DNA of 64,000 nt from an uncultured bacterium (GCA_949299335.1 CASGAD010000031.1:1075-65074), one strand, 5' to 3'. Shown: positions 1,774-63,718, counted from the stretch's first letter. Translations and numbers: made by a program. Notes: a model not told the origin generated them from the sequence alone.

Positions 1774-3312
1774 TTAGTCTTGCGCATTTTCTCCTTTAAA
1801 ATAATCCCGATTTTCTTCATCAACAACACTAACTTCATTAATATTATTCCAATCAGATAAAATTGTAGCTTTAATGTTAGAGTAATGTTTAATTTCATCA
1901 ATTACTTGCTTTGTAAAAACCTCGCCAGGTACAATAATCGGAATTCCTGGAGGATAAATCATAATCATCTCTTTAGAAATTTTATTTAATGCGTCGTCCA
2001 AAGATGAAACCTTTAAAGGTGCATGGAAAGCAACTCTAGGTCTGATTTTCATAGTTGGGAAACCATCGATAAAATGCTTATTTTCTAAATAAGTAATGGA
2101 TGGATCATAATACATATCACTGATTTCTTTTAAAGTTTCAACTATACGGTCAACATCTTTTTGCTCACTTCCAATTGTAAATAAAAGTAAGAAAACGTAA
2201 GTTTCAGCAAGTTCAATTTGAACTTTATACTTATCCTTTAAAAGTTTATATAATTCAAATCCACTGATTGATAATTTATCTATTTCAACACAAAGTTTTG
2301 TTTCGTCATAACTATATGCATCACAATTAGAAACAAAGTAATCTTTAGAATGAGCTATAAAGCCAGGGATTTTATTAATTCTTTCTTTAGCTTGTCTAGC
2401 TAATTTAATAGCATTATAAATATATCTACTGCCCTTAAATACCAAAAATTTTCTAGCAGCGTCTAAACTTGCTAGCAAAATCGAACTTGGTGAAGTTGTT
2501 GTAATCAAATTAAAAGACTTGTTTACTTCATACATTGAGATTCTTTCGCCTTTTAATAAAAGAACTGATGATTGAGTTAAACTTCCTCCAGTTTTATGAA
2601 TTGATAAAGTAGCCATATCAGCTCCTGCATCCATTGCAGTAATTGGTAACTTATTAGAAAAATAAAAGTGGGTACCATGAGCCTCATCTACTAATACTGA
2701 GATATTATGTAAATGAGCATATCTAACTACTTTTTTTAAATCACATGTAGCACCAAAATATGTTGGATTAATAATAAATATTGCTTTAGCATCGGGATTT
2801 TCATCAATTGCTTTTTTCCATTCTTTGTAAGTTGGTTGATTAACAATTTCAGTAGCTTTATCGACTTCAGGCATTATAAAAACAGGCTTAGCACCACTTA
2901 AAATTAATGCATTTATCGCACTTTTATGAACATTTCTAGGCATTATGATTTTTTCATTAGCTTTAACAGCTGACATAATCATAATTAAATTTCCACTAGT
3001 TGACCCATTAACTAAGAACTTACAAAAATCTGCATGACATGCTTTAGCAAATATTTCTTGAGCTTCTTTAATTGCACCGGTAGGATGTAATAAATTATCC
3101 ATACCTCTAGGACAATTAACATCATTTTTATAAACAATATGACCAAAAATATGATCAAAATCTGTACGTATTTTTCCTTGGTGATGACCTGGAACATCAA
3201 ATACAGTCGTTTGTTCTTTTAAATACTTCGAATAGGCATCAAGATATGGTGTCTCTCTTTGTTCGTTTTTCTCTTTTATAGTCATACTTTTATCAATGTT
3301 TATTATATACAT
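1774..3312 (-). CDS. PLP-dependent Orn/Lys/Arg decarboxylase (SpeA/YaaO-like); true start possibly a few codons downstream
   Basis: FDVPGH, NGSTSG, PRNVHKS, DEAHG, SIHKT (PLP lysine), YPPGIP motifs. Confidence 0.9.
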   Translation of the reverse strand: MYIINIDKSMTIKEKNEQRETPYLDAYSKYLKEQTTVFDVPGHHQGKIRTDFDHIFGHIVYKNDVNCPRGMDNLLHPTGAIKEAQEIFAKACHADFCKFLVNGSTSGNLIMIMSAVKANEKIIMPRNVHKSAINALILSGAKPVFIMPEVDKATEIVNQPTYKEWKKAIDENPDAKAIFIINPTYFGATCDLKKVVRYAHLHNISVLVDEAHGTHFYFSNKLPITAMDAGADMATLSIHKTGGSLTQSSVLLLKGERISMYEVNKSFNLITTTSPSSILLASLDAARKFLVFKGSRYIYNAIKLARQAKERINKIPGFIAHSKDYFVSNCDAYSYDETKLCVEIDKLSISGFELYKLLKDKYKVQIELAETYVFLLLFTIGSEQKDVDRIVETLKEISDMYYDPSITYLENKHFIDGFPTMKIRPRVAFHAPLKVSSLDDALNKISKEMIMIYPPGIPIIVPGEVFTKQVIDEIKHYSNIKATILSDWNNINEVSVVDEENRDYFKGENAQD

Positions 3313-3388
3313 TTAAATTGAAAATAAAATATTCTTTTATCAAAAATAATAATATTGATATACAAAGATAACGAGTTAAAATTATTGT

Positions 3389-3844
3389 ATGAAAATTTTA
3401 GTGTGTAGCGATAGTCATGGAGATTATTTCTCTTTAAATGACATAGTCTTTAAAAATTACGATTGTGACTATTTTTTTCATCTTGGAGATAGTGGATTGC
3501 CTGAGTACTTATTAAGCAATTTTTCAGGGGTCAAAGGCAACTGTGATTTTAATGATTTGCCAAAAATTAGAGAAATCGAAATTGAAGGATTAAAGATTCA
3601 TCTAGAGCATGGTGATTCATTTCATTTTATGACTAATCCAACTAAATATGTCGAATCGTTAGATTGTGATATCTTTTTATTTGGTCATACACATAAAAAA
3701 TTATCAGAAAAAATAAATAACAAATACATCTTTAATCCAGGCAGCCTAACTAGACCTAGAGATGGCGATAAAGGTAGTTATTTAATTATTGAGATTAAAG
3801 ATAAAAAAGTTTTGTCATATAAATTTGTCGAGGTAAAAGAATGA
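3389..3844 (+). CDS. Metallophosphoesterase (YfcE/YsnB/MJ0936 family)
   Basis: SDSHG, HLGD, GNCD, HG, GHTH, NPGS motifs. Confidence 0.92.
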   Translation: MKILVCSDSHGDYFSLNDIVFKNYDCDYFFHLGDSGLPEYLLSNFSGVKGNCDFNDLPKIREIEIEGLKIHLEHGDSFHFMTNPTKYVESLDCDIFLFGHTHKKLSEKINNKYIFNPGSLTRPRDGDKGSYLIIEIKDKKVLSYKFVEVKE

Positions 3845-4410
3845 ATAGAAAGCAAATTAAAGAAGCTCAAGAAAAAATGCTTAGTAATTTTTTCACAATC
3901 AAAGATGATGTAGCCACTTTTGATGTTAATTATAAAAAGATTGATGATATATTAGATCCAAATTTTAAAGGTCAAAAAAAGCCTATTATTTATGGTAACT
4001 TTTTTGAAGATATGAAGCGTTACACTTCTTTGCTTCCTAAAAAATATAAAATAGAAATGAATATAAATATTGAGGATTTACAGGGCTATTCATTAAAAGA
4101 TGTAGAAGAAATCGTTTTCGATAACAAAAATCTATTCTTTATAAAACGCCATCAAACTAAAAAGAATAAAGCCGTTTCATCTATAATTATGCTTATTTTA
4201 GGAACAATCTTCTTCTCTCTTTATTCAATAGGTATTAAATTTGAATGGGAACAAATTTTAAATGAGTTTGTTTATATCGCTTGTTGGGTCTTTTATTGGG
4301 AAGCAGTTAGCATTGTCTTTTTAGAAATATTTGGTGAAGATGCCAAACTAAAACAATTTATTAACCGTATTAATAAAATTAATATTACAAATAATAAAGT
4401 TAATGACTAA
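3841..4410 (+). CDS. Hypothetical membrane protein (two C-terminal TM helices)
   Basis: 189-aa ORF overlapping the previous stop (ATGA); hydrophobic C-terminal segments, WVFYWEAV motif. Confidence 0.75.
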   Translation: MNRKQIKEAQEKMLSNFFTIKDDVATFDVNYKKIDDILDPNFKGQKKPIIYGNFFEDMKRYTSLLPKKYKIEMNINIEDLQGYSLKDVEEIVFDNKNLFFIKRHQTKKNKAVSSIIMLILGTIFFSLYSIGIKFEWEQILNEFVYIACWVFYWEAVSIVFLEIFGEDAKLKQFINRINKINITNNKVND

Positions 4411-7267: not shown

Positions 7268-8452
7268 TTACTTAATGATTTCGCTAACTGTACCAGCACC
7301 AACGGTTCTTCCGCCTTCACGGATTGAGAACTTAGTACCTTTTTCAATTGCGACTGCGTGGATTAATTCAACTGTGAATGAAACGTTATCACCTGGCATA
7401 ACCATTTCTGTTCCTGCTGGAAGAGTAATTGTTCCAGTAATATCTGTTGTGTGGAAGTAGAATTGTGGTCTGTAGTTGCTTAAGAATGCAGTATGTCTAC
7501 CACCTTCTTCTTTGGTGAGGATGTAACATTGACATGTGAATTTTGAATGTGGTGTGATTGAACCTGGTTTTGCTAAGACTTGTCCTCTAACGACTTGATC
7601 TCTTGCAACACCTCTTAAAAGGATACCTGCGTTATCACCTGCTTCAGCGAAGTCAAGTGTTTTTCTGAACATTTCAATACCAGTAACGACTGAGGAAATT
7701 GTTGGTCTAATACCGACGATTTCAACAGCATCGTTTAATTTAACAGTACCTCTTTCAACTCTACCAGTGACGACTGTACCACGACCTGTAATTGTGATGA
7801 CGTCTTCGATTGGCATTAAGAATGGTTTATCTGTATCTCTTACTGGATCTGGGAAATATGAATCAACAGCATCCATTAATTCTAAGATGCTCTTTTCAGC
7901 TTCTGCATCACCATCGAGAGCTTTTCTAGCACTACCTCTGATGATTGGGATTTCATCACCTGGGAATCCGTATTTGCTTAATAAGTCTCTGACATCCATT
8001 TCGACTAAGTCGATTAATTCTGGGTCATCAACTAAATCACATTTATTTAAGAATACACAGATGTAAGGAACACCAACTTGTCTAGCAAGTAAGATGTGTT
8101 CTCTAGTTTGTGGCATAACACCATCAGTTGCAGCAACAACGAGGATAGCACCATCCATTTGAGCAGCACCAGTAATCATGTTCTTGACATAGTCTGCGTG
8201 CCCTGGACAGTCAACGTGTGCATAGTGTCTTTTTGCTGTTTGGTACTCGATGTGAGCTGTATTAATTGTAATACCTCTTGCTTTTTCTTCTGGAGCAGCA
8301 TCAATTTGGTTATAATCCATTGATTTTGCCATACCAGTCTTTGAAAGGACGTGTGTGATAGCAGCTGTTAAGGTTGTTTTACCATGGTCAACGTGGCCGA
8401 TGGTACCAATGTTCATATGGACCTTACTTCTATCAAATTTTTCTTTTGCCAT
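7268..8452 (-). CDS. tuf: Elongation factor Tu
   Basis: [25 protein letters not shown]; canonical 394 aa. Confidence 0.99.
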
Positions 8453-8556: not shown

Positions 8557-10629
8557 TTAACGATTGGACATGCCACTCTTTTTGACAATTTCTTCTTGAA
8601 TGAATTTTGGACATTCTCCGAAATGATCAAATTCCATTGAGTAGCTTCCTCTACCTTGAGTAAATGAACGTAAATCTGTGACGTAACCAAACATTTCTGA
8701 TAATGGTACTTCAGCTTCAACGATTTTCGCATTTCCTCTTTGACTTTCACCAGTCATATTTCCTCTTCTACGAGAAATATCACCGATAACATCGCCATAA
8801 TAATTTTCTGGGACTGTAACTTCAACCTTCATAATAGGTTCAAGAATTACAGGATCACACTTTTTAGCAGCTTCTTTAAGTGCCATACTTGCAGCAATCT
8901 TATAAGCGGCTTCACTACTATCAACATCATGGTAAGAACCATCATGTAATGTAGCTTTAATATCAATTACTGGATATCCAGCAATTAAACCTCTTTGTAA
9001 AGCATCAGCTAAACCATCTTGGGTAGGTTTAATATATTCCTTAGGAACTGTACCACCAACAATAGCGTTGACGAATTCAAATCCTTTTCCTGGATTTGGT
9101 TCAAAGTCGATAACGACGTGACCATATTGTCCTCTACCACCAGATTGTTTAATGTATTTACCTTCACAATCTCCTTCTTTTCTGATTGTTTCACGGTAAC
9201 CAACTTGAGGTTTACCAACATTAACTGAAACGTTGAATTCTCTTCTTAATCTATCAACAATAATGTCTAAGTGAAGTTCACCAACACCAGCGATAATTGT
9301 TTGACCACTATCTTCACTTGTGTGAACTTTAAAGGTTGGGTCTTCTTCAGCAAGTTTAGCTAAAGCTAATGACATTCTTTCTTGATCTGCTTTAGTTTTT
9401 GGTTCAACAGCTTCTTCGATAACTGGTTCTGGGAATTCCATCTTCTCTAATGTAACTTCAATTGATTCATCACAAATAGTTTCACCAGTAGTTGTATTTT
9501 TTAAACCGATAATTGCACCAATTTCACCAGCGTGAAGTGCTTCTACTTCTTGTCTATGATTTGAATGCATTAAGACTAAACGTCCGATTCTTTCTTTTGC
9601 ATTCTTATTTGAATTTAAGACATAGCTACCAGCTTTTAAGATACCACTATAGACTCTGACATAAGCTAATCTTCCAACGAATGGGTCTGTTGCAATTTTG
9701 AATACAAGACCGACCATCTTTTCGTCATCACTTGGCTTACAGAAGAATTCTGAACCATCTGGTAAAGTACCTTTTGCTGGAGGTATATCAAGTGGTGAAG
9801 GTAAGTAATCAATAACGCCATCAAGGAGTAATTGAATACCTTTGTTTTTATATGCTGATCCACAGAAAACAGGGTGGAATTCACCTGAAATTGTAGCTTT
9901 TCTAATGACAGCTTTAATTTCTTCGACACTTGGAGTTTCACCTTCAAGGACTTTCATACAGAAATCATCATCAAATCCAGCTAAATCTTCGATTAAATCA
10001 GCTCTTAAAGCTTCACATTTTTCACGATATTCTTCTGGAATATCAATGAGTTTAGGATTTTTGACATCTGCATAATCCCAAGCTTCCATTTTAACTAAAT
10101 CGATAACACCGGATAATGTGTTAGAAATTCCGATTGGGTATTGAACTGGTCTTGCATTTGCACCAAGTTTTTCTTTAATTGAATGCCAGCTCATATCAAA
10201 GTCAGCACCAATTGCATCTAATTTATTAACAAACACGATTCTTGGAACACCATATTTTGTTCCTTGTCTCCAAACTGTTTCAGTTTGTGGTTCAACACCA
10301 TTTTTTCCATCAAGAACTGTAACAGCACCATCAAGAACTCTTAAAGAACGTTCAACTTCAACTGTAAAGTCGACGTGCCCAGGAGTGTCGATGATATTGA
10401 ATCTATTTTCCTTCCAAAAGCAAGTTGTTGCAGCACTAGTAATAGTGATACCTCTTTCTTGCTCTTGAGCCATCCAGTCCATTGTTGCAGCACCTTCGTG
10501 AACTTCACCAATCTTATGAATTTTGTTTGTGAAGAACAAGATACGTTCTGTTGTTGTGGTTTTACCGGCATCAATGTGAGCCATGATACCAATGTTACGA
10601 GTATGTTCTAAATCGTATTCTCTAGCCAT
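8557..10629 (-). CDS. fusA: Elongation factor G
   Basis: [30 protein letters not shown]; follows rpsG. Confidence 0.99.
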
Positions 10630-13047: not shown

Positions 13048-16000
13048 TTAATACTTGGAATTGATGTAATCATCTTCAGTTGGTAATGACTCTAATTCAT
13101 TTAATGATTCATCGCCAACATCGTTTTCATCATATTCGCTATCATGAATACCTATATATTGTTTTTCAACTTCTTTCATTCTTTGAGTGACATCGAAGTT
13201 ATCAACAAGTTCTTTAGCCTTATCACGAGCTAAGAGACCTCTACCGGCAGGAATTAATTTACCAGTAATAACGTTCTCTTTTAAGCCATGTAAACTATCA
13301 ACTTTTCCTTTAATAGCAGCATCTGTTAAGACACGAGTTGTTTCTTGGAAGGATGCAGCTGAGAGGAAGGAATCTGTTTCAAGAGCAGCTTTTGTAATAC
13401 CTAAGACAAGTGGTCTAGCAACTGCTGGACGTTTTCCAGCAAGTAAAGCGACTTTGTTCTTTTCAGTAAATTCAACAATTGAAACTCTTGTTCCAGGAAT
13501 CATCTCAGTGTCACCACCATCGATAATAACAACTTTTCTAAGCATTTGACGTACGATGACTTCAATATGCTTATCACTAATTGCGATACCTTGGACTCTA
13601 TAAACTTTTTGAACTTCTTTAACGATATAACGCTCAACTGAACCAATATCACTAACTTCAAGAAGTTTCTTAGGAGAAATAGCACCTTCAGTAATCTTAT
13701 CACCATTACGGATTGTATCGCCTTCTTTGACTCTTAATCTAGCGCCAAAGTTAGTTGTATATGTTTTTTCTTCTAATTCGTTAGTAACTGTAACAACGAA
13801 TGTACCATTTCTTTCTTCAATACGAGTAACTTTACCTGGGATTTCACTAATTAAAGCTTCACCTTTTGGATTTCTAGATTCAAATAATTCTTGAACTCTA
13901 GGTAAACCTTGAGTGATATCTTCAGTAGTAGCAACACCACCAGAGTGGAAAGTACGCATAGTTAATTGGGTACCAGGTTCACCGATTGATTGAGCAGCCA
14001 TAATACCAACAGCTTCACCAATTTCGACTGGTTTACCAGTAGCTAAGTTACGTCCATAACAATGTTGACAGACACCATCCTTAGTATTACATCCAAATAA
14101 GGATCTAATTTCAACACGAGTAATACCAGCATTAACAATTGCTTTAGCATCTGCTTCTTCAATTAAAGTGTTGCCTTTAACGATGACTTCACCAGTTTGT
14201 GGATGAATAACATCGTGGCAAGCATATCTACCAATTAATCTTTCTTCTAAAGAAACAATAATTGTATTTTGTGCAGTATTAATAATATCGCTAACTACAG
14301 TACCGTGATCAGAATGACAATCTTCTTCTCTAACGATAACATCTTGAGAAACGTCAACAAGTCTACGAGTTAAATAACCAGAGTCAGCAGTCTTTAAAGC
14401 GGTATCAGCACCACCTTTTCTAGCACCGTGGGTACCTGTGAAGAATTCACTAACGTTAAGACCTTCACGGAAACATGATTTAACAGGTAATTCAATAGTA
14501 TCACCACTTGTTGAAGCCATAAGACCTCTCATACCCATTAATTGTGCGAAGTTTGATTTACTTCCTCTAGCTCCAGAGTTCCGCATGATATAAAGTGGGT
14601 TACGATTATCAGCTCTTAAAGTTTCTTCAACTCTATCACCAACTTCTTTATTTACAGCGTTCCAGACATCAACAACCTTTGCATGTCTTTCTGCATCTGT
14701 TAATAAACCTTTTTCGTATAACATTTCAATCTTATTGACTTGTTTATCACCGGTATCAACTAATTTATCTTTGTTATCAATGACATAAATATCACTAATA
14801 GCGACTGTTAAGCCACTAATTGTTGAATATCTATAACCTTGGTCTTTAATCTTATCAAGAACAGCACTTGTTTTAGTTGTACCATAAACTTGATAAATTT
14901 GATTGATTATTGCAGTGATTTGTTTCTTTCCAATAGGATCTTTTGTTGGTAAAGATGCGATATATTCAGGAATATTTGTTCCACGTGGAACAAAGAATTC
15001 TTTCTTGTTATGTAATAAGTTCTCACTTGATCCATCATTAATAAATGGGAAATCTTTAGGAAAAACAAAGTTAAATATGACTTTACCAACTGTAGTAACG
15101 AGGTAAGAATTGTTCATTTCTGGAGTAAACGAAGTTCTCTTCATTTCTCTACCAGGAATTGCAATTCTATTATGTAAATGGATTAATCCCATTTCATAAC
15201 ATTTATAACATTCATCAATATCTTTAAAGACTTTACCTTCCATATTAGCAAAGTTACGATATTGTTCAGCTCTTTCGATATCACCTACAGATTCGTATTT
15301 TGCAGCTTTTTTAAGGAAATCTTCTTTATTGGATTCCATTGTTAAGTAATAGTTGCCAATTAAGATATCTTGAGATGGAGTAACAATTGGTTTTCCATCT
15401 TTTGGAGCAAGAATGTTATTACTTGCTAACATTAAATCTAATGCTTCTTCTTGTGCTGCTTTACTGATTGGTACGTGGACAGCCATTTGGTCACCATCGA
15501 AGTCAGCGTTAAATCCTGTACAAACGAGTGGGTGAAGTCTAATAGCTCTACCTTCAACTAAGATTGGTTGGAAAGCTTGGATACCAAGTCTATGTAATGT
15601 AGGAGCACGGTTTAATAAGACTGGGTGTTTGGAAATAATTTTTTCGATTACATCATAAACATCTGGGTCTTTGTTATCAATTTTCTTATCAGCTTGTCTA
15701 TGTAAAGTACATTTGCCTTCTTTAATTAAGACAGCAGCGATAAATGGTCTAAGTAAATTAATAGCCATTTCACGTGGTAATCCACATTGATACATTCTTA
15801 ATGTTGGTCCAATTGCGATAACCGAACGTCCAGAATAGTCAACACGTTTACCAAGTAAGTTTTGTCTAAATCTACCTTGTTTACCTTTTAATGCACCGCT
15901 CAATGATTTTAATGGTCTTCCGTTTGGTCCAGTGACTGGTTTGCCATTTCTTCTACCATTATCAATTAAAGCATCGACTGCTTCTTGGAGCATTCTCTTT

Positions 16001-20000: not shown

Positions 20001-20644
20001 CTATCACCAAAAAGTTTTAATATATCTTCATCTGTTTCAATTCCTAAGGCCTTTAATAAAATTGTTGCAGGCATTTTTCTTTGACGGTCAATTCTAACCC
20101 AAAGGAAACCTTTTACATCGCTTTCAAATTCAAGCCAAGTACCTCTTGTAGGAATTAAGTCAGCGTTATATGTATAATGTCCAATCTTGTTATCAAATGT
20201 TTTTGATAAATATGCACCTGGAGATCTAACAATTTGTGAAACGATAACTCTTTCTGCACCATTAACGATAAATGTACCGCTATCAGTCATAAGAGGTATT
20301 TCGCCCATGAAGACATCACTATCAACAAATTCTCCAGTAACTTTATCTAAAAGTCTAAGATTAACAGTAAGTGGTGAACTATATGTTAAATCTTTTTCTT
20401 TACACTCTAAATATGTATGTTTTGGTTGATCTAATCTAAATGAGTTATAAATAATTGACATTGTTTGACTATAGTTGTCAATTGGGAAAACATCTTTAAA
20501 AACCTCATCAATACCATCTTTTAAGAAGTTTTTATAAGATTCTGTTTGAATTTCAACCAAATAAGGGAGTGGCAATGTACCACTAATTTTAGAGAAATTA
20601 ATACGATCATTATTGATTTTTGGGTAATCTTTATATGATTTCAT
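17042..20644 (-). CDS. rpoB: RNA polymerase beta subunit
   Basis: [46 protein letters not shown]. Confidence 0.99.
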
Positions 20645-27422: not shown

Positions 27423-27570
27423 CCAATCTAATAAATAATATCATAATGTATCGTTTCCTTCATTAATTAACATTAAAATCAATATTTAGACTTTTAATTT
27501 TGCTCTCCTTAAAGTCTATATTTTTATACTTGTTTCCGTTATAATATTTGAGACACACAGGAGGATGACT

Positions 27571-28572
27571 ATGGAAGAAAGGAAAAGAGCTTTAAGTGGT
27601 ATTAAACCAACAGGTAACCTAACATTAGGTAACTATATAGGTGCATTAAGGGAATTTAAGAAATTTCAAGATGATTATGAAACTTTCATTTTTATTGCTG
27701 ATTTACACGCATTAACCTTGCCAATAGAACCTTCTTTTTTAAAAAATAATACAAAAGATATCGTGGCTTTTTATTTAGCAGCTGGTTTGGATCCTCAGAA
27801 AACGACAATCTTTTTGCAAAGTGACGTAAGTGCTCACGCTGAATTAAATTCAATTTTGATTAACTTCTTATACATGGGCGAACTTAGTAGAATGACTCAA
27901 TTCAAAGAGAAATCTCAAAAGTTAAATCATGAAGCAATTGGTGTTGGTTTATTTGCTTACCCAGTTTTAATGGCTAGTGACATTCTTTTATACAACGCTG
28001 ACATTGTTCCGGTTGGCGATGATCAAACTCAACACGTTGAATTAACACGTGACCTAGTCCATAGATTTAATGAACGTTATAAAAAAGAAGTCTTCATTAT
28101 GCCTAAAGCTGTTAAACCAAAGGTAGGCTCTCGAATCATGTCCCTTTCTGATCCTACTAGAAAAATGTCAAAGTCCGACCCAAAAGGTGATATCTTCTTA
28201 AAAGATGATATAAACATAATTAGAAAAAAGATAATGTCTGCTGTAACCGATACAGGTCACGAAATTAAATATGACCCAGAAAATAAACCTGGTATCTCAA
28301 ATTTATTGACAATTTATGCTTCTTTAAGTGATATCACTATTGAAGAAGCTGAAAATAAATTCAAAGATATAACCCAATATGGTGAATTTAAGAAAACTGT
28401 TGCAGATAAAGTTATTGAAGTAATTGAACCATTTCAACAAAGATATAAAGAAATCTTAAATAGTGGCGTGATTGACCAAGTTTTGAGCGAAGGTGCTAAA
28501 AGAGCTTCCTATATAGCAAATAAAACTTTGCGTAAAGTTAAAAAAACTGTAGGACTATATTTACATGAGTAG
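27571..28572 (+). CDS. trpS: Tryptophan--tRNA ligase
   Basis: SGIKPTG, TLGNYIGA, YPVLMASDIL, VPVGDDQ, KMSKS; start chosen from GGAGG spacing. Confidence 0.97.
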   Translation: MEERKRALSGIKPTGNLTLGNYIGALREFKKFQDDYETFIFIADLHALTLPIEPSFLKNNTKDIVAFYLAAGLDPQKTTIFLQSDVSAHAELNSILINFLYMGELSRMTQFKEKSQKLNHEAIGVGLFAYPVLMASDILLYNADIVPVGDDQTQHVELTRDLVHRFNERYKKEVFIMPKAVKPKVGSRIMSLSDPTRKMSKSDPKGDIFLKDDINIIRKKIMSAVTDTGHEIKYDPENKPGISNLLTIYASLSDITIEEAENKFKDITQYGEFKKTVADKVIEVIEPFQQRYKEILNSGVIDQVLSEGAKRASYIANKTLRKVKKTVGLYLHE

Positions 28573-29473: not shown

Positions 29474-31168
29474 TTAAAAATTTTTATCATCAAAAGAATT
29501 AAGAACCTTCACTTGAGGCTTAATAACTTTTTTTACATTTCCATCAACGAATGGATTTCTTAATTTAGCTTTTTCTAATAAAGTTAAGAAAGGATATTTT
29601 CCACCCATTTTAAGCAATTTTATATATTTTTTCCAGGCTCTTGCATGGTTTTTATCCATAATACACTTAAATTCCAAAGCAATTACTTGTGCTAAAGTAT
29701 AGTCAATATAATAGAAAGGGGTGCAGAAAATATGAGATTGTTTAACCCGATACTTTCCATTTTTTAAATAATCAAAGCCCTCATAATTAAGCCATGGTCT
29801 ATATTTTTTCTCGAGTTCGGACCATTTTTTGCACCTCTCTTCATGAGTTGCATTTGGATTTTCATAAACATAATGTTGGAATTCATCCACTTCCACACCA
29901 TAAGGTAAAAATGAAATTGCGCTATCTAAATGTGAAAATTTATACTTCTCTGCTTGATCTTTAAAGAAAAGATTCATCCAAGGCCATGCAAAGAATTCCA
30001 TAGACATAGAATCAATTTCACAAGCTTCTAAAGTAGGCATTCTATATTCTGGTACCATGACATTGGCACATAAGTATCCTTGGAAAGCGTGACCAACTTC
30101 ATGAGTTAATGTATCAACATCATTACTTGTTCCATTACTATTTGCAAATATAAATGGTGACTTATACTTAGGAATAAAGGTCATATAGCCTCCGCCTCTT
30201 TTCCCGGCCTTAGCGTCTAAATCCATCAAGTGATTATCAACCATAAAGTCAAAAAATTTACCAGATGTTTCACTCATTTCATGATACATTTTACTAGCGC
30301 ACGAAACCAAATATTCTGTGTCTCCACATGGCTTTGCATTTCCACTTAAATAGTCTAAATTATAATCTAAAAATAATGGCTTTTTGATTCCTAATCTTTC
30401 TGCTTGTCTTTTTCTTAATTTTTTAACTACAGGGACAACTGTTTCATAAATTTGATCTCTATAGCCTTTAACCATCTCGCTATTATAATCTAATCTTTCA
30501 AGTCTTAAATAACCTAGTTCCGTATAACTTTTAAATCCTAATTTATGAGCGATTTCTGTCCTTGTTTTAACAAGTTCATCATATATTTCTCCAAATCTTT
30601 TATCGTTTTCTTCTAAGAATCCATAAAATAATTTGGCTGCTTCAATTCTTGTATTTCTATCAGAATCACTTAAAAACTTACCTAATTGACTAAGATTTCT
30701 TTTTTCACCTTTATACTCAATTTGAGCACTAGCCATAAGTTTTTCATATTCAGTTACAAGTTTATTTTCCTTTTGCAAATCTGGGATAATACTTTCATTA
30801 AAAGTTTTGAAACTTGCTTCAATTTTATCAAAATAAAATTTACCGAATTTTTCTTCTAATTCAGGTTTAAATTTAGAGGCTACTAATGCTTTTTTAAAGT
30901 TTTGTGTATATCCATTGATTATTGGAAAAATTTCATCGCATACTTCCATAGCTTTTTCATAAACTTCATCTTGTGTATTTATTGAATTCCTAATAGAAAT
31001 AATTGTAATCTCACTTTCCAATTCATCAGAAACTTTAAAAAAGTCTTTAACGACTTTAATAGCCTCTTCTTTAGTTGACGCATTGTTAATTCTTTCTACA
31101 AGTTTTTTAAATGTTTTTTCTGCCTTTTTTAAATTTGGCACAATTAATGGCATTTCTTCAAATTTCAT
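29474..31168 (-). CDS. M3B oligoendopeptidase (PepF/Pz-peptidase family)
   Basis: HEVGH zinc motif, EIDSMSMEF, QSHIF...PFYYIDYTLAQ; contains the diagnostic CGG codon at 29747-29749. Confidence 0.95.
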   Translation of the reverse strand: MKFEEMPLIVPNLKKAEKTFKKLVERINNASTKEEAIKVVKDFFKVSDELESEITIISIRNSINTQDEVYEKAMEVCDEIFPIINGYTQNFKKALVASKFKPELEEKFGKFYFDKIEASFKTFNESIIPDLQKENKLVTEYEKLMASAQIEYKGEKRNLSQLGKFLSDSDRNTRIEAAKLFYGFLEENDKRFGEIYDELVKTRTEIAHKLGFKSYTELGYLRLERLDYNSEMVKGYRDQIYETVVPVVKKLRKRQAERLGIKKPLFLDYNLDYLSGNAKPCGDTEYLVSCASKMYHEMSETSGKFFDFMVDNHLMDLDAKAGKRGGGYMTFIPKYKSPFIFANSNGTSNDVDTLTHEVGHAFQGYLCANVMVPEYRMPTLEACEIDSMSMEFFAWPWMNLFFKDQAEKYKFSHLDSAISFLPYGVEVDEFQHYVYENPNATHEERCKKWSELEKKYRPWLNYEGFDYLKNGKYRVKQSHIFCTPFYYIDYTLAQVIALEFKCIMDKNHARAWKKYIKLLKMGGKYPFLTLLEKAKLRNPFVDGNVKKVIKPQVKVLNSFDDKNF

Positions 31169-35194: not shown

Positions 35195-35207
35195 GTGTGT
35201 TAGCCTT

Positions 35208-35291: not shown

Positions 35292-35299
35292 CAAAAGCT

Positions 35300-35375: not shown

Positions 35376-35381
35376 ATACTT

Positions 35382-35457: not shown

Positions 35458-35468
35458 ACCAAAATGAT

Positions 35469-41254: not shown

Positions 41255-44032
41255 TTAATGTAAGTTTTTTTCTAATTCAATATGTGAAATTGTCCCTAAT
41301 GTTGCAATTGAAGATGCAATACTTAAAAATAAAATTATTAAGAAATTTACTAATAAATACATAGGATTTGCGAGGTTTATTGTAGATAATCCATAGCTTG
41401 ATGACAACAAATTACCGACAATTGAAATAATAAATAATAGAGAAATAGAACTTAAAATATAAGATGCGAAACATTGAACCATGTTATCAATTACAAATAT
41501 CTTTAATATTTGATATCGGTCAAAACCAAGGATTGTAAAAATAGCAATTTCTTTTTTCGATTCTAAAGCATTTACTAAGCTAATAATAACAAGAAGAATT
41601 AAAGAAGAAATTATTGAAACAATAGTAAATGCGTATAATAGATAATTTAAAAATTTCATTGACTCGTTGACGCTTTCTTCTATAGCTAAAATCGGATTTC
41701 TAATTTCATACTCAGCAAAGTATCCGTTTAATTTCTCAATGTCCTTTTTTGACATGCTTCCATTAGTTTCAAATATGATTGAGGTAGGTATTAACGAAAA
41801 GGCAGAAATTTTAAAAAGATCTCTAAACAAAGATAATGAAAATTCCTTATTTTGGTAAATAGAAACACTATTGTCTTCTTTCACAACATCTTTAATTGTT
41901 AATGTGATAGTTTCAAAACTATTTCTTATTTCGCCGTTATATTCTTCACTTCCAACAAGCATTGATATATAAATTTCTTGATTGACAACTTCTTCACCGA
42001 TAATATTTTTGAATCCATTACTAACAATTATTTCATTAGGCAAAAGTTCAACTTCAGATGACTTTAGCTTAAGATTACTTGTAGATGGTTTGAATGCATA
42101 ACCATCCACAACATTATCTGGAACTTTAATGTTTAAATAATCTTCCTCACTAACCTTAGAATGAGCATCTATAACACTTTCAATTTTTGAAATGTCTTTG
42201 CTTAAAAATACAGGCCTAGAAAATCCAGTAAATAACGATGTACCGTTATTAAAATATCCTTGGCTTGTAGAAAAATAATAGCTTTTGTACTTAAAACCAA
42301 TGTCATTTAAATGATTAATTATTCCAATATCTAAACTATCTTTAAAAATATTATAAACATAAAGTTTATTAGTCGATTGGGTATTATACGCACATGTTAA
42401 TGGCGAATAATAGTTATTATCGCTATCAAATAAATAATCTTTATAATCTTGATCATAAAGAATTTCATTTAAAAAATATGTTTGAAATTTTTTGGTATGA
42501 ACATAAAACACTTTCTTGAATATCCAAGGATACTCTTCTATTTTATTTAAACGATTTGAAACCGGGAATTTCATATTCTCTTCAAAAAGGACTGTATTAA
42601 ATAAGGGATTTGTATGATATATCCTATTTTTTGTATCAAGGATAAATGCTTTGATTTTAAATATTTGTTCATCACTATATTGCCGTGAGTCATTTTTAAC
42701 TCTTAGATTCACATACAAATTATGAGTTTTAAGATAATTAGATAATGAAGAAATCGTTCTTTCGATCTTTAAATCAAAACAAATTGATTTTAATGTATCA
42801 AAATTAAAAGAGATTATAATTTCATCATCGTTTAAATCATCAACTATTAAAGGATATGTTTCTAAATTATTGTAATCAGTAATGTATACAAATTCATTGA
42901 ACATTCTAATATTAAACCCACTAATTTCACTTGTTTTTCCTGAATTTAATAAAAATAAATTATTTACATCAGGAAAAAAGTTTTCAAAATCAACAATATA
43001 ATTGCATCCAAAATAATCTAAATATTCCTTGTATTTATTCATTAAAGAAGCAACATCGTTAATCCCACTCGAATAAAAATCAAAAATTTCATTCTTAGAG
43101 TTTTTCTTATTTAACACTACTACATTTTGGTCAATGATATTTTTAAACGACTCGACTAAAGAATTATTAATACCACTTGATAAACAAATTGATAAACCAC
43201 TTGAAATTAAAGAAATTGATAGAAATATGCTTTTTATAATATTCCTAAACTTTCTTACTTTAAATCTTGATTGAAGATATCTAAAAATGTATTTAAATCT
43301 TAATTTTGAAGAATTGTTTTTATTCAATAATTTCATTATTTTTAAAGGTGGATTCTTTTTGCTTCTTTTAATTTTGATAATTTTAATTCTTCTATGTTTT
43401 AATTCAAGGATGTAATCAGCATATTTATATGCACTTTCCCTATCATGAGTAACACAAATCACAGCTGCATTAATTGAAAGATTTCTAAGAATTTCAAATA
43501 TGTTCTCTGTATTATTTGTATCTAAAGCACCTGTAGGTTCATCACAAAAAATAACTTCTGGATCAATTACTATTGATCTAGCTATTGCAACTCTTTGCTT
43601 TTCGCCTCCGCTTAAATTTCTAACATATTCATTTTTTAAATTATCTATTTTTAATAATTTTAAAATTTCATTAACTTTATTCAATCTGAATTCTTTATTG
43701 AGATTTGAAATCGCATCAAGCATTAACAAGACATTATTTTCCACTGTATCATCTTCAAGCAAATTATAATTTTGAAAAATGTAACTAAATTTTGTCGACC
43801 TAATCGTACATTTTTCTTTATATTGAAAATTTGATGTATTTTTATTATCGATAAGTAATTTCCCTCTATAATCATTATCAATTAAAGATAATATGTTTAA
43901 TAGAGTTGTTTTCCCACTTCCAGAATCGCCTAATATGACATAAAATCCGCTATCTTTAAATTCAAAAGAAAAATCTTTAAATAAAGGTTCATCTTCATAT
44001 TGCTTTGTTAATTTGTCTATTTTAATAATCAT
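41255..44032 (-). CDS. Fused ABC ATPase + FtsX-type permease (MacB-like)
   Basis: GDSGSGKT, LSGGEKQR, DEPTGALD, TH; large extracytoplasmic domain; C-terminal FtsX-like TMs. Confidence 0.88.
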   Translation of the reverse strand: MIIKIDKLTKQYEDEPLFKDFSFEFKDSGFYVILGDSGSGKTTLLNILSLIDNDYRGKLLIDNKNTSNFQYKEKCTIRSTKFSYIFQNYNLLEDDTVENNVLLMLDAISNLNKEFRLNKVNEILKLLKIDNLKNEYVRNLSGGEKQRVAIARSIVIDPEVIFCDEPTGALDTNNTENIFEILRNLSINAAVICVTHDRESAYKYADYILELKHRRIKIIKIKRSKKNPPLKIMKLLNKNNSSKLRFKYIFRYLQSRFKVRKFRNIIKSIFLSISLISSGLSICLSSGINNSLVESFKNIIDQNVVVLNKKNSKNEIFDFYSSGINDVASLMNKYKEYLDYFGCNYIVDFENFFPDVNNLFLLNSGKTSEISGFNIRMFNEFVYITDYNNLETYPLIVDDLNDDEIIISFNFDTLKSICFDLKIERTISSLSNYLKTHNLYVNLRVKNDSRQYSDEQIFKIKAFILDTKNRIYHTNPLFNTVLFEENMKFPVSNRLNKIEEYPWIFKKVFYVHTKKFQTYFLNEILYDQDYKDYLFDSDNNYYSPLTCAYNTQSTNKLYVYNIFKDSLDIGIINHLNDIGFKYKSYYFSTSQGYFNNGTSLFTGFSRPVFLSKDISKIESVIDAHSKVSEEDYLNIKVPDNVVDGYAFKPSTSNLKLKSSEVELLPNEIIVSNGFKNIIGEEVVNQEIYISMLVGSEEYNGEIRNSFETITLTIKDVVKEDNSVSIYQNKEFSLSLFRDLFKISAFSLIPTSIIFETNGSMSKKDIEKLNGYFAEYEIRNPILAIEESVNESMKFLNYLLYAFTIVSIISSLILLVIISLVNALESKKEIAIFTILGFDRYQILKIFVIDNMVQCFASYILSSISLLFIISIVGNLLSSSYGLSTINLANPMYLLVNFLIILFLSIASSIATLGTISHIELEKNLH

Positions 44033-51324: not shown

Positions 51325-51531
51325 AGTAAAAATTATATATTCAAAACAATCTAAATAAAAGTGTGATGCCTTAAATTGGGTTTCTCTGTATTTATTGAAA
51401 ACTTAAATTTCCAATATTTTTAATGAGTAAATCACGAAAAGTCTATTTTTTTGATGGCAAATATACATTTATGTATATTTTTACATTAATTTGTGATATT
51501 TTTATATCTAGTTTTTTTGGAGGTATTTAGT

Positions 51532-53355
51532 ATGAAGATGAGAAATGTCGCTATTATCGCTCACGTTGACCATGGAAAAACAACTTTAGTCAATCAACTT
51601 CTTAAATGTAGCGGAACATTTAGAGAAAATGAAAAATTAGAAGATAGAGCCATGGATAGTAACGCAATTGAAAGAGAAAGAGGCATTACAATCTTAGCTA
51701 AAACAACAAGTATCAAATATAAGGACTATAAAATTAACATTTTAGACACTCCCGGACACGCTGATTTTGGAGGAGAAGTCGAAAGAATCATGCATATGGT
51801 TGATGGCTGCTTGCTACTTGTTGATGCTTTTGAAGGAACGATGCCACAAACAAGATTTGTCTTAAAAAAAGCTATCGAAGCTGGTGTAAAACCTGTTGTT
51901 ATTGTTAACAAAGTTGACCGCCCTAATGCTAACGCTGATAAAGCTGTTGATGAAGTTTTACAATTATTTATGGAATTAGGTGCACCTGATAATTTCCTTG
52001 ATTTCAAGGTAGCTTATACTAGTGCTTTAAACGGAACAAGCTCATTAAGTAGTGATCCATCTACTCAACAACCTGGTATGGATCCTGTATACGAATTAAT
52101 TATTAATGAAATTCCTGAGCCAAAGGTAGAGGAAAATGGACCACTTCAACTTCAAGCTGCTTTATTAGATTACAATGATTATGTTGGAAGAATGGGTATT
52201 GGTAGAATTCAAAGAGGAACTATAAAAGTAGGTTCTACCGTATCATGTGCAAGACTTGATGGAACTTCCAAACAATTCAAAATACTTAAATTAATCGGAT
52301 ATTATGGTTTAAAGAAGATTGAAATTGAAGAAGCTCATGCTGGCGAAATTGTCGCTGTTGCTGGTTTACCAGATATAAACATTGGTGAAACAATTTGTGA
52401 TACTACTAATGTTGAACCACTTCCATTACTACACATCGATGAACCAACCTTACAAATGACATTTGGTACAAACAGCTCACCTTTCGCTGGACAAGATGGA
52501 AAACTATTAACTGCAAGGCAAATCGAAGAAAGGCTTTATAAAGAAGCTCAAAAAGATGTCTCTTTAAAAGTTAAAAGAGTTCCTAATAGTGAGACCTGGA
52601 TTGTCAGTGGAAGAGGCGAATTACATTTAGGCATTCTAATTGAAAACATGCGTAGAGAAGGCTACGAAATTGAAGTAAGCAGACCTCAAGTTATCATTAA
52701 AGAAGTAAATGGTGTCAAACAAGAGCCTTACGAAGATTTAAGTGTTGAAGTCCCTAACGAATTTGTTGGTGATATTATGACTTCTTTAGGATCAAGAGAC
52801 GCTGAATTAATTGATATGGATGCTGGTGATGTTAATACAAAAATTAATTATGTCATTCCATCAAGAGGACTTATTGGTTTTGTAACAAACTTCTTAACAC
52901 TTACTAAAGGATACGGAATTATAGCTCATACATTTAAAGAGTACCGCCCTATTGCTCAAGGTAAAATTGGTGAAAGAGCTGTTGGTGTATTAGTTGCTAC
53001 CGAAAACGGACAATCAACCCCATACGCAATTCAACACGTTGAAGAAAGAGGCGTAATGTTTATTTACCCAGGCACTCAAATCTATGAAGGTATGATTGTT
53101 GGGGAAAATAAATATGATACTGATTTAAGTGTAAATGTTTGTCAAACCAAAAATTTAACAAACCAAAGAAGCGCTAATAAAGACCAAACTGTCGTTTTAA
53201 AATCACCTAGAAAAATGACCCTTGAAGCATGCTTAGATTATATTAATAGCGATGAACTTGTAGAAGTTACTCCAAATAATTTTAGAATGAGGAAGAAAAT
53301 TTTAAATAATGCTGAGCGTAAAAAACGGGAAGCAAAATTTAAAGTTCAACAATAA
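51532..53355 (+). CDS. typA: Translational GTPase TypA/BipA
   Basis: [38 protein letters not shown]; ATG 51532 after GGAGG. Confidence 0.97.
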   Translation: MKMRNVAIIAHVDHGKTTLVNQLLKCSGTFRENEKLEDRAMDSNAIERERGITILAKTTSIKYKDYKINILDTPGHADFGGEVERIMHMVDGCLLLVDAFEGTMPQTRFVLKKAIEAGVKPVVIVNKVDRPNANADKAVDEVLQLFMELGAPDNFLDFKVAYTSALNGTSSLSSDPSTQQPGMDPVYELIINEIPEPKVEENGPLQLQAALLDYNDYVGRMGIGRIQRGTIKVGSTVSCARLDGTSKQFKILKLIGYYGLKKIEIEEAHAGEIVAVAGLPDINIGETICDTTNVEPLPLLHIDEPTLQMTFGTNSSPFAGQDGKLLTARQIEERLYKEAQKDVSLKVKRVPNSETWIVSGRGELHLGILIENMRREGYEIEVSRPQVIIKEVNGVKQEPYEDLSVEVPNEFVGDIMTSLGSRDAELIDMDAGDVNTKINYVIPSRGLIGFVTNFLTLTKGYGIIAHTFKEYRPIAQGKIGERAVGVLVATENGQSTPYAIQHVEERGVMFIYPGTQIYEGMIVGENKYDTDLSVNVCQTKNLTNQRSANKDQTVVLKSPRKMTLEACLDYINSDELVEVTPNNFRMRKKILNNAERKKREAKFKVQQ

Positions 53356-59208: not shown

Positions 59209-60470
59209 TAGCGTGAACCCATCGCTTTCTCAATATCATCAATCTCTTTAATAATTGAACCACTTAAACAATAACTTCCATCTTCCGTAACTAATATATC
59301 ATCTTCGATTCTTACACCGATTCCTAATTCCTTAAAATATAATCCAGGTTCGTCTGTAATAATATTGCCAGGAACTAATGGAAGGTCTCTATTAGCAGGA
59401 TCGTGTGTATCCAACCCTAGATGGTGTCCAATTGAATGGAAATAATACTTACGAATTTCAGACTCATTACTCATTAATCCTTCTTCGACGCAGCGTCTAG
59501 CCATAAAGTTTGTAGCTATATCGTTTAATTCTTTTATTGTGATTCCAGGCTTAATAGAATCAATTATTAATTTGTTACATGCTAAAACAATGCCGTAAAT
59601 TTTCTTTTGTAAATCAGTAAATCTTCCATTTGCAGGATATGTTCTAGAAATATCGGCGCAATATAAATTGTTTTGACTACCTAAATCAAATAAAACAAGG
59701 TCTCCGTCCTTAATCTTTGCTACAGGAGTTGGATAATGCAAGCATGTTGCATTAACACCACTGGCACAAATTGTTGAGAAACTTAATTCACTATTATCGT
59801 AGTCTTGAATCGTGTAATAAAATAAACTTGATAATTGATATTCATAAAGACCAGGTCTAATTTTCTTAAGAATATTTTTTAAGCCAATGTTAGTTTTATT
59901 AATCGCTTCTTTTAATTCGGCTATTTCATCTTTACTTTTAACCATTCTTAGACTAATGATTCTATTGTAAATATCCTTAGCTTCAAGCCGAGGATAATTC
60001 ATTAATAAAACATCTTTAGCTTCCTCGATGGTCTTAAATCCATCAATTAGATTCTCAGGTTCTAAATCAAAGTATATGGTTGAAATCTTTGCAAAAGCGC
60101 TATCTTTTTTGCAAATTAATAAGTCTAATTCGCTTTCAAAAACATTTAAATACATTACATTATCGATACCACTTAAATCACGAGCTTCATTTGGTCTTAA
60201 TCTTTTCCCGGTCCATTTTTCTTTAACTTCATCGTATTCGCTAATGAATAAATATTCTTTAATTATGCCATCTTGTTTTGCGACTAATAAAATTGAACCT
60301 TCTTGTTTAATATTCGTTAGATAATAAAAATTTCTATTTACAACAAATGGATATGTTTCATCAGCACTTCTTTTTTTACTTACTCCAGCATAAAGAATTA
60401 GGATTGAATTATCCTCAAGTGACTCATATAATTTCTCTCTTCGAGAAGCAATTTCCTTAACTTCAATCAT
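59208..60470 (-). CDS. pepP: Xaa-Pro aminopeptidase (aminopeptidase P, M24B)
   Basis: RNFYYLT, LHY, DLG...ADISRT, HSIGHHLGLDTHD, EPGLY, GVRIEDD. Confidence 0.93.
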   Translation of the reverse strand: MIEVKEIASRREKLYESLEDNSILILYAGVSKKRSADETYPFVVNRNFYYLTNIKQEGSILLVAKQDGIIKEYLFISEYDEVKEKWTGKRLRPNEARDLSGIDNVMYLNVFESELDLLICKKDSAFAKISTIYFDLEPENLIDGFKTIEEAKDVLLMNYPRLEAKDIYNRIISLRMVKSKDEIAELKEAINKTNIGLKNILKKIRPGLYEYQLSSLFYYTIQDYDNSELSFSTICASGVNATCLHYPTPVAKIKDGDLVLFDLGSQNNLYCADISRTYPANGRFTDLQKKIYGIVLACNKLIIDSIKPGITIKELNDIATNFMARRCVEEGLMSNESEIRKYYFHSIGHHLGLDTHDPANRDLPLVPGNIITDEPGLYFKELGIGVRIEDDILVTEDGSYCLSGSIIKEIDDIEKAMGSR

Positions 60471-61907: not shown

Positions 61908-61937
61908 TTTGCTATTTTATTATATAATAATAAAATC

Positions 61938-62831
61938 ATGAAAGAAAAAATTAAGTGCAAGAAATGTGGTCTTTTGATTGATGATGATTTAGAAACCTGC
62001 CCTTATTGTGGATATTCACAAAAAGATGACACAGAAACTCATCCAATTGAAAATAAAAATGAAGAAATTAAAGAGGCACCAAATACAAAAAGCCATTCTT
62101 TTTTTAGTTTTCCTTCAAGAACTTTGGATATAAGCATAACTAAATCAATTGTTTTATTTTTATTTGGTTTAATAGGATTAAAATTTATAGGGTTACTATT
62201 TGAATTAATTAGTATAACTACTGGCAATCTTTATTTTATTAATAACCTTGAAGCGAGTGCTGCAATTAACTTTTCATGTTACGCAATCCTTTTTGGTGCT
62301 TTTCTCATTATATTAAATTTTGATTTAGACAAATTTTTTAAATCATTTAAAAGTAAAACTCTAGCACTTGATGGCATAGGCTTTGGATTCTTCTTAATGA
62401 TAGTCTCAAGTGCTGTAACCTTATTATTTAAATTTTTCGATACCTCAACCGGATCAAACGCAAACGAGCAAGGTGTTGATGCAATTACTGATATTTATCC
62501 TGTTCTTTCATTGCTTATTTTTGGAATAATAGGTCCAATTTGCGAAGAATTGACTTATAGAGCTGGATTATTCACTGCTATAAAAAAGTACAATAGAACA
62601 GCTGCCTATATTGTGACTGCTATAATATTTGGCTTAATTCACTTCGACTTTGGAAGTATTGGTGGCGAAAGTTTTGTAAGTGAGCTTATTAATATTCCAA
62701 GTTATATAGTTAGTGGCTTGCTCCTCTGTTATTTTTATGACTATAAAGGGATTGGAGTAAGCACAGTTGCTCATGTCACCAATAATTTTATTGCTATATT
62801 AGTTCAAATTTTGAGTTCTGCTTTATTATGA
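61938..62831 (+). CDS. CAAX protease/Abi (CPBP) intramembrane metalloprotease with N-terminal zinc ribbon
   Basis: CKKC...CPYC; EELTYR, FGLIH, HVTNN motifs. Confidence 0.9.
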   Translation: MKEKIKCKKCGLLIDDDLETCPYCGYSQKDDTETHPIENKNEEIKEAPNTKSHSFFSFPSRTLDISITKSIVLFLFGLIGLKFIGLLFELISITTGNLYFINNLEASAAINFSCYAILFGAFLIILNFDLDKFFKSFKSKTLALDGIGFGFFLMIVSSAVTLLFKFFDTSTGSNANEQGVDAITDIYPVLSLLIFGIIGPICEELTYRAGLFTAIKKYNRTAAYIVTAIIFGLIHFDFGSIGGESFVSELINIPSYIVSGLLLCYFYDYKGIGVSTVAHVTNNFIAILVQILSSALL

Positions 62832-63718
62832 AAAGAATATTAACTCACTTTGATTTGAAATTAATTGCAGTAATTTCAATGACATTAGACCATATAGGAA
62901 GAATGATTCTTTTGTTTTTTCCTACAAATGAAAGTTTAAGCATCTTAAGTTATATTCTTACTATTTTTGGAAGACTAGCTTTTCCAATATTTTTATTCTT
63001 AGTAATCGAAGGATTTTATCATACTAAAAATATTAAACTCTATTTTCTTAGGTTGGGCATAATGGCTCTAATCGTTTATCTAGGTTTACTTACATTGTCC
63101 TTAGTCTCTATAGATTCATTAAATATTGAGCCGTTAAAAATTGGAAATATATTTATCGATCTAATTCTTGCTTTGTTATTTGTATACTTAATAAATAAAA
63201 AGGGGCGGCTATATAAATTGCTTTTAATTCCTTTAATAGGATACTTTGTTATATTTTTATTATTACAAATAAATATATTTTCAATAAATAATAGCTTATT
63301 AAAAGCTTTGGTTTCAGGATTAGCTCCACAATATTCTTTTGTAACTCCTCTATTACTTGTTATATTTTTTGTAATCACTTTTTCATATAATTTTTATGAC
63401 ATTAAAAAACTAAATATTGTTGATAAAAATGATTTAAATTACGCATATACTCCTAGTGTTATTAAAAGAGAATACATTTACTCTTTTGCTGTTATCATTT
63501 TAATTCTTATTTTATACGCATTAACCTATGTTGAGGGATTAAATTTAAATACTGATTTGGCTTTGAATACCTATTTTATTTTCGCTATTATTCCTATTAT
63601 TCTATATAATGGCGGTATCGGTAAAAATAGCAAAATAATTCAGGGTGCATTTTATTTGTATTACCCTATATCTATTTGTATTATCTATTTAGTATTCTAT
63701 TTAATTAGTTTAATTTAA
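62828..63718 (+). CDS. TraX-like membrane protein (putative acyltransferase)
   Basis: LKLIAVISMTLDHIG, GRLAFPIF, EGFYHT, YNG, FYLYYP. Confidence 0.82.
   Translation: MKRILTHFDLKLIAVISMTLDHIGRMILLFFPTNESLSILSYILTIFGRLAFPIFLFLVIEGFYHTKNIKLYFLRLGIMALIVYLGLLTLSLVSIDSLNIEPLKIGNIFIDLILALLFVYLINKKGRLYKLLLIPLIGYFVIFLLLQINIFSINNSLLKALVSGLAPQYSFVTPLLLVIFFVITFSYNFYDIKKLNIVDKNDLNYAYTPSVIKREYIYSFAVIILILILYALTYVEGLNLNTDLALNTYFIFAIIPIILYNGGIGKNSKIIQGAFYLYYPISICIIYLVFYLISLI

Follow-up and report, generated by a model that had tools for sequence, protein, structure and literature searches.

In a 64,000-nucleotide stretch of DNA from an uncultured gut bacterium (hereafter the window; G000:C31:1075-65074), and in the genome to which it belongs (G000), the codon CGG appears to be read as tryptophan (Trp) instead of arginine (Arg). 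We put the probability at roughly 0.9 that CGG is a Trp codon in G000, a Candidatus Onthovivens genome of the order RFN20 (Bacilli), that it is read by a dedicated tRNA(CCG), and that this is a reassignment already published. The original prediction, made from the window, was that CGG had passed from Arg to Trp; genome-wide codon columns, a likelihood comparison (log-likelihood -162 for Trp versus -618 for Arg), and the tRNA set agree in bearing it out.

G000 is an assembly of 1.417 Mb in 37 contigs, is 98.3% complete, and has a GC content of ~29% (24-31% among contigs). We called open reading frames (ORFs) of at least 80 amino acids (aa) by a greedy non-overlap procedure, which yielded 1149 ORFs covering 90.5% of the genome. 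CGG accounts for 121 of the 427,446 codons in these ORFs (0.28 per 1000), next to 2493 TGG, 9343 AGA, 1731 CGT, 836 AGG, 596 CGA, and 268 CGC. Three of the 121 belong to two spurious ORFs, one within a 16S rRNA fragment at the end of contig C22 and one over tRNA-His. The credible set is thus 118 CGG codons in 105 ORFs, or 4.5% of Trp-type codons (118 versus 2493 TGG). The ORFs end in TAA (804), TAG (206), or TGA (136); TGA is therefore a stop codon, as the original prediction had it.

To read the meaning of CGG from related genomes, all G000 ORFs were compared by tblastn with two whole reference genomes, and the reference codon under each aligned residue was recorded. The references were a congener, G009 (1.408 Mb, 31% GC), and a member of another genus of the same family, G041 (0.976 Mb, 36.5% GC). 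Of 62 CGG codons aligned to G009, 44 are opposite TGG, four opposite CGG, and 14 opposite other codons, none of them another Arg codon. The 47 aligned to G041 are opposite Trp (27), Phe (5), Arg (3), or other residues (12). Hence, on the question of whether the CGG columns hold Trp or Arg/Lys, Trp predominates in both references. The control codons, each scored for its standard amino acid, behaved as follows:

TGG: Trp at 77% of sites against G009 and 71% against G041
CGT: Arg at 72% against G009 and 62% against G041
AGA: Arg at 69% against G009 and 62% against G041
CGA: Arg at 58% against G009 and 51% against G041
AGG: Arg at 58% against G009 and 42% against G041
CGC: Arg at 50% against G009 and 48% against G041

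CGA is opposite Arg at 193 of 332 sites in G009 and never opposite Trp, and Arg codons as a whole are opposite Trp at no more than 8 of 6631 sites. With empirical profiles from both references, the log-likelihood for CGG is -162 for Trp, -426 for Tyr, -433 for Phe, and -618 for Arg; Gln and Ala are outside the six top-scoring amino acids, the sixth of which scores about -556. The signal is strongest at well-conserved sites (at least 6 of 10 flanking residues identical), where Trp is found at 30 of 36 sites in G009 (the remainder being three CGG, Ile, Thr, and Gly) and at 13 of 16 in G041, with no Arg. Tallied over all 118 codons, 51 are opposite Trp in at least one reference, two opposite Arg only, 16 opposite other residues, and 49 are unalignable.

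The same comparison was also run in reverse. Seventy-four aligned CGG codons of G009 are opposite TGG (35), TTT (9), or TAT (7) in G000, among others, and opposite AGA at most once, whereas 151 aligned CGG codons of G041 are opposite AGA (40), AAA (38), CGT (9), AGG (6), or CGA (5). The congener therefore shares CGG as a Trp codon, and the sister genus retains the standard meaning; judged by its codon columns, G041 is a genome that uses CGG as Arg.

Within the window, the original prediction had listed seven in-frame CGG codons. Exactly those positions and peptide contexts were recovered, and window ORFs of at least 80 aa hold no others; an eighth CGG is on the same contig, shortly beyond the window end. 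Gene names of window ORFs, here and below (tuf, fusA, rpoB, typA, pepP, etc.), are the labels of the original prediction. The seven sites are:

1807..1809, minus strand: CGG, residue 502 of a 512-aa ORF (1777-3312; labelled decarboxylase); TGG in G009 and G041
14581..14583, minus strand: CGG, residue 816 of RpoC (ORF 13051-17028); TGG in G009, AGC in G041
29747..29749, minus strand: CGG, residue 474 of an ORF labelled M3 (PepF-like) peptidase (29477-31168); TGG in 28/28 covering relatives
42683..42685, minus strand: CGG, residue 450 of a 925-aa ORF (41258-44032; labelled ABC protein); TGG in G009, unaligned in G041
53326..53328, plus strand: CGG, residue 612 of a 620-aa ORF (51493-53352; labelled typA); TGG in G009, TAC (Tyr) in G041
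59988..59990, minus strand: CGG, residue 161 of a 420-aa ORF (59211-60470; labelled pepP); TGG in G009, CAT in G041
63206..63208, plus strand: CGG, residue 127 of a 296-aa ORF (62828-63715; labelled TraX-like); AAA in G009, GTA in G041

Six of the seven are opposite TGG in the congener. The seventh, at 63206, has weakly conserved flanks (2 and 4 identical residues of 10) and is uninformative. The ORFs labelled tuf, fusA, and rpoB (7271-8452, 8560-10629, and 17045-20644) were said to be free of CGG, and no in-frame CGG was found in them.

Individual genes with many homologs point the same way. The M3 peptidase site had been claimed as a conserved Trp; among 29 loci examined, all 28 relatives that cover it have TGG. 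In an accessory DNA methylase, Trp occupies each of two CGG sites in 119 of 119 homologs. At residue 816 of RpoC, none of 80 homologs has Arg, and three of the five closest have TGG. The RpoC genes of the nearest relatives contain no CGG and are therefore uninformative about the code of those relatives, and two named outgroup metagenome-assembled genomes (MAGs; RpoC 65-68% identical) place CGG at conserved Arg columns. A PDB alignment of the H+-pyrophosphatase was uninformative: its CGG site 91 faces Ile where a membrane helix begins, and the alignment stopped short of site 690.

A CGG codon also occurs in a ribonucleotide reductase, where all three close homologs (42-44% identical) have TGG and 26 distant ones vary. 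The gene, a class-I-like large subunit with an ATP cone, is part of a block at G000:C17:47595-59955 that has no homolog in G009, G041, or 10 other family genomes. Its nearest relatives, at 42-44% identity, are in other Bacilli families. The block was probably acquired, though its CGG occupies a Trp position.

We turned to the tRNA genes for the means by which CGG could be read as Trp. ARAGORN finds 42 tRNAs in G000, with ACG, CCU, and UCU as Arg anticodons. In this search of the 98.3%-complete genome, neither a tRNA(UCG) nor an Arg-type tRNA(CCG) was found. Three genes, two outside and one inside the window, are placed as follows:

G000:C19:5031-5104, plus strand: tRNA(CCG), 74 nt, outside the window
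G000:C21:891-964, minus strand: tRNA-Trp(CCA), outside the window
27565..28569, plus strand: trpS, the sole tryptophanyl-tRNA synthetase (TrpRS) gene of G000, in the window

According to Shulgina and Eddy (2021; PMC8629427), an Arg-type tRNA has A20 together with A73 or G73, and a Trp-type tRNA has G73 and no A20, with A1:U72 or G1:U72 as supportive features. The tRNA(CCG) of G000 has a short D-loop, AAUGGUA, with U at position 20 and hence no A20; its variable loop is 4 nt long, its discriminator base is G73, and its first pair is G1·U72. Its build resembles that of the genome's own tRNA-Trp(CCA), and the Arg tRNAs are 76-77 nt long with GGAUAGAGC. Thus, the CCG tRNA with G73 and without A20 that the original prediction would have us look for is present, and an Arg-type counterpart was not found. 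The tRNA set of G009 is the same as that of G000. G041, in turn, has a 77-nt Arg-type tRNA(CCG) with A20 and A73, as well as a tRNA-Arg(UCG). A search pattern for the Arg-type tRNA(CCG) that does match the gene of G041 found none in 60 genomes of the genus.

A common cloverleaf, with compensatory change at 17 of 21 base pairs, is seen in nine tRNA(CCG) genes, of which eight belong to the genus and the ninth to genus g150. The loop UCCGAA, G73, and G3:C70 are invariant, A20 is absent from all nine, and position 1:72 is A:U in five, G·U in two, and G:C in two. Such a conserved cloverleaf with compensatory changes indicates that selection maintains tRNA(CCG) as a tRNA. When a covariance model is made from these nine genes only, tRNA-Trp(CCA) comes top in five congeners (75-76 bits; the next hit reaches at most 68.5). 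With the same model, tRNA-Trp is also top in G041 at 69.6 bits, and the Arg-type tRNA(CCG) of that genome scores only 54.7.

By a hand reading of the listed matches to a D-arm pattern, 35 (or 36) of 60 genus genomes have a tRNA(CCG). The reversed-pattern control gave ~20 chance matches in 60 genomes, and six of 12 pattern matches excised for inspection were not tRNAs. BLAST with the 74-nt tRNA(CCG) against 200 genomes of the order was too insensitive, returning three true genus matches and one chance tRNA-Gly(CCC). In a draw of 250 family genomes, the 11 matches in congeners (10 of the 15 sampled) were all of the short form. Other genera mostly have the form with a long variable loop (15/16 genomes of genus g25, 14/16 of g20, and 13/16 of g155), and neither form was matched in g30 (0/16), g34 (0/7), g27 (0/7), or g24 (0/6). 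In this low-GC family, tRNA(CCG) may often have been lost.

There were two side observations on Trp-like tRNA(CCG). First, the one in genus g150 (L303:123-197, genome G398) has A1:U72, G73, and no A20 and is situated between tRNA-Glu(CUC) and tRNA-Ala(CGC). Second, a distinct type within the genus itself has G1:C72 and the anticodon stem CUAGA/UCUAG; the loci are L307:141-215 (G136) and, in G015, L308:146-219 and contig G015:C31, and G015 has both types.

In both G000 and G009, tRNA(CCG) is directly 3' of a hydrogenase-like operon of three genes, which is conserved. The same operon in G041 is separated from the next gene by ~116 bp that contain no tRNA, and the Arg tRNA(CCG) is at a different place, after tRNA-Leu(CAG). 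This single outgroup suggests that the Trp-like tRNA(CCG) is a new gene and not an Arg tRNA converted in place. By tblastn, G000, G009, and G041 have one trpS each, and Pfam PF00579 is found on the database twin. A single TrpRS presumably charges both tRNA-Trp(CCA) and tRNA(CCG).

Taken together, these data are consistent with a simple decoding scheme. The 74-nt Trp-type tRNA(CCG), presumably charged by the single TrpRS, would decode CGG, and CGU, CGC, and CGA remain Arg codons read by tRNA(ACG), whose anticodon is presumably converted to ICG by deamination. With tRNA(UCG) and an Arg-type tRNA(CCG) both missing, CGG is left with no arginine tRNA to read it. Historically, AT pressure would have purged CGG, the Arg tRNAs for it would have been lost, a Trp-like tRNA(CCG) would have emerged at a new locus, and TGG-to-CGG transitions would have come after. 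Codon capture under AT pressure would match the 29% GC of G000, the 36.5% GC of the standard-code sister genus, and a congener nearly without CGG (G017, below).

Several observations weigh against reading CGG simply as Trp in an Onthovivens genome. The anticodon nucleotides C35 and G36 are arginine identity elements, and tRNA(CCG) retains both. Overall, it is only 55-65% identical to tRNA-Trp(CCA), and the G009 copy is nearest to a Thr tRNA. In the outgroup G041, the covariance model places tRNA-Gly(CCC) at 69.5 bits, about level with tRNA-Trp at 69.6. The G000 gene has C at the position of the usual U55 (T-loop UCCGAUU). Of the 118 CGG sites, 49 fall in accessory genes for which neither reference has a homolog; three of these sites were examined further. 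Arg is opposite 3 of 47 CGG sites in G041 versus 7 of 926 TGG sites. The assignment to the genus comes from two NCBI protein labels and ranges of identity, not from a phylogeny, and in this form points to Onthovivens. Finally, the evidence is wholly computational and comparative; it shows which residue the codon corresponds to, which tRNA genes are present, how a sister genus with the standard code differs, and that the structure of the tRNA is conserved, and charging and decoding are what we infer from this. The same C55, with compensatory changes in the T-stem, occurs in congener G240 (L314:126-199), so that this base must have been inherited and does not reflect faulty assembly.

Some charging of tRNA(CCG) by arginyl-tRNA synthetase (ArgRS) could thus take place, with CGG decoded ambiguously. 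In that case, CGG would be mostly Trp and partly Arg, either because ArgRS recognizes C35/G36 or because a near-cognate Arg tRNA reads the codon. The retained anticodon nucleotides, the three Arg-aligned sites in G041, and the continued rarity of CGG all fit such a state, and PMC8629427 holds that experiment alone can settle ambiguous decoding. However, A20, the other Arg identity element applied there, is missing from every one of the nine tRNA(CCG) genes. All three Arg-aligned sites are in poor context (at most 3 of 10 flanks identical), and well-conserved sites have Arg at 0 of 36 in G009 and 0 of 16 in G041. Furthermore, CGG occupies the invariant Trp positions of enzymes (119/119 and 28/28), where frequent Arg would be costly. 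We consider ambiguous decoding improbable, though it fares better than any other alternative to CGG being read as Trp in a known lineage.

The original prediction had left undecided whether G000 belongs to a known recoded clade or represents an independent event, that is, the same reassignment acquired separately by a genome outside the published RFN20/Onthovivens clade. The reassignment of CGG from Arg to Trp has been published for an uncultivated Bacilli clade belonging to order RFN20 of GTDB (PMC8629427; Shulgina and Eddy 2021), and the RFN20 lineage with this change has been named as the genus Onthovivens (PMC13092985, 2026). An independent origin would accommodate the two sequence types of tRNA(CCG) in the genus, the Trp-like tRNA(CCG) in g150, and the five congeners without a detected tRNA(CCG), all of which make gains and losses look patchy. 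But the relatives of G000 argue otherwise. The named genomes closest to it by RpoC (62-77% identity) are MAGs from the gut that go under Bacillales, Bacilli, or "uncultured bacterium" and are mostly labelled Bacilli, in line with the clade description in PMC8629427. Among the best 120 TrpRS relatives, only two are named, both "Candidatus Onthovivens sp." (82% and 80% identity), and these are within the range of the genus (congeners 72-86%; two other family genera 67-68%).

The published descriptors of Firmicute CGG clades, as given in PMC8629427, are a GC content of 0.26-0.38, fewer than 6 CGG per 10,000 codons, a missing tRNA(UCG), and a consistent tRNA(CCG), and all of them are found in G000. 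The CGG frequency of G000 is 2.8 per 10,000 codons over all ORFs, compared with a published figure of <6 whose base is Pfam-aligned codons. G000 shares with RFN20/Onthovivens the codon, the amino acid, low GC, the absence of tRNA(UCG), the retention of tRNA(ACG), and a tRNA(CCG) that has G73 but lacks A20. Nothing sets G000 apart in kind from that lineage, and it may be a further species of the genus. Because all published descriptors and the Onthovivens labels fit, we regard the reassignment as genuine and as known before; the evidence favors the known clade, and a separate acquisition seems less probable still than ambiguous decoding. Two close relatives, L005 and L018, are deposited as unrelated Clostridia (Gemmiger formicilis, Lachnospiraceae bacterium) and are probably mislabelled bins; the genome behind L018 has a Trp-like tRNA(CCG).

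That CGG keeps its standard Arg meaning, with the differences due to substitutions, errors, or pseudogenes and tRNA(CCG) an odd arginine tRNA, deserves almost no credence: ARAGORN does call the tRNA "Arg", from the anticodon alone, and table-11 frames are open either way, but no CGG is opposite a non-CGG Arg codon in G009 (0/62, against 50-72% for true Arg codons), Arg trails Trp by 456 log-likelihood units, and tRNA(CCG) is a short, Trp-type molecule without A20, in whose model the 77-nt Arg-type tRNA of G041 scores poorly.

CGG as Trp in G000 can be set beside other reassignments of Arg codons. Anaerococcus, described in PMC8629427, shares the codon, the amino acid, a Trp-like tRNA(CCG), and low GC; that paper reports no conserved positions in support for Anaerococcus, and G000 has dozens. 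The other CGG cases of PMC8629427 are in the class Clostridia (10.64898/2026.04.02.715157), whereas the relatives of G000 are mostly labelled Bacilli. In the code of Absconditabacteria, where CGA and CGG both stand for Trp and UGA for Gly (PMC8629427), CGG is likewise Trp through a tRNA(CCG). That code was rejected for G000, where CGA stays Arg (0 Trp), TGA is a stop, tRNA(ACG) is present, and tRNA(UCG) is absent. In Peptacetobacter (CGG to Gln) and RGIG3102 (CGG to Ala), a rare CGG was also captured in low-GC Bacillota by a non-Arg tRNA(CCG) (PMC8629427; 10.64898/2026.04.02.715157). Neither Gln nor Ala is among the six best amino acids for CGG in G000, and its tRNA has G3:C70, not the G3:U70 of alanine. 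An unassigned CGG, as in Mycoplasma capricolum (Oba et al. 1991, cited in PMC8629427), resembles the state of congener G017 and was rejected for G000, where a tRNA(CCG) is present and CGG occurs in frame 118 times. AGG-to-Met in Enterosoma (UBA7642, family CAG-288; PMC8629427) is a case from the same order, RFN20, which also uses a dedicated tRNA with an anticodon starting in C. In Enterosoma, an existing Arg tRNA took on a new identity without moving, and in G000 a Trp-like tRNA(CCG) is found at a site that is tRNA-free in the outgroup.

The relatives of G000 appear to be in a mixture of states. tRNA(CCG) was not found in five congeners that are 85-96% complete (G017, G201, G023, G003, and G012), using patterns and the covariance model: the first four were scanned with both patterns, G012 with one, and all five with the model. 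G017 has a single CGG among 34,910 aligned codons (104.7 kb). Of 13 CGG sites of G000 that align to it, six are opposite Trp, and the others include Tyr, Val, Phe, Gln, and Asp. From this one partial genome, G017 may represent an "unassigned CGG" state within the genus. Rather against the odds, the genus and its family could together display all stages of codon capture at once: Arg-type as in G041, empty as in G017, and Trp as in G000, where CGG would be returning at Trp sites. The two sequence types of tRNA(CCG) in the genus and the Trp-like copy in g150 are part of this picture, and the lineage might bear traces of the new tRNA(CCG) having been gained or lost more than once.

Two features of G000 outside this argument were also noted. 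At C22:9900-10415, the contig terminates in a 16S rRNA fragment, the one over which a spurious ORF of at least 80 aa was called. It contains the 515F site as GTGCCAGCAGTCGCGGTAA, with T in place of the usual C, and an RF00177 search of the whole genome gave no 16S match despite this plain 16S. In the window, five clustered tRNA genes, Val(UAC)-Tyr(GUA)-Gln(UUG)-Lys(UUU)-Leu(UAA), occupy 35119-35555, at the sole stretch of positive GC skew. Their order is identical in G041, and the same five tRNAs are consecutive in G009.

The practical consequence is one of annotation. Translation with table 11 gives Arg for Trp at 118 positions in 105 proteins of G000, including seven positions in the window, among them RpoC and the invariant Trp of the M3 peptidase. 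A code with CGG as Trp is advisable for annotation, structure prediction, and proteomic searches in this genus; example peptides under that code are NPLYIMWNSGAR (RpoC) and DVLLMNYPWLEAK. Sense-codon reassignments are very rare in bacteria, and the 2021 screen reported five (PMC8629427). G000 provides a clean, internally controlled example of one, whose value is more in the apparent mix of states among its relatives than in the published reassignment. If that mix exceeds the published figure, the codon-capture model would have a natural time series in this lineage. The mix could also allow the sequence of events to be tested, from the loss of the codon and of its tRNA to the gain of a tRNA and the return of the codon.

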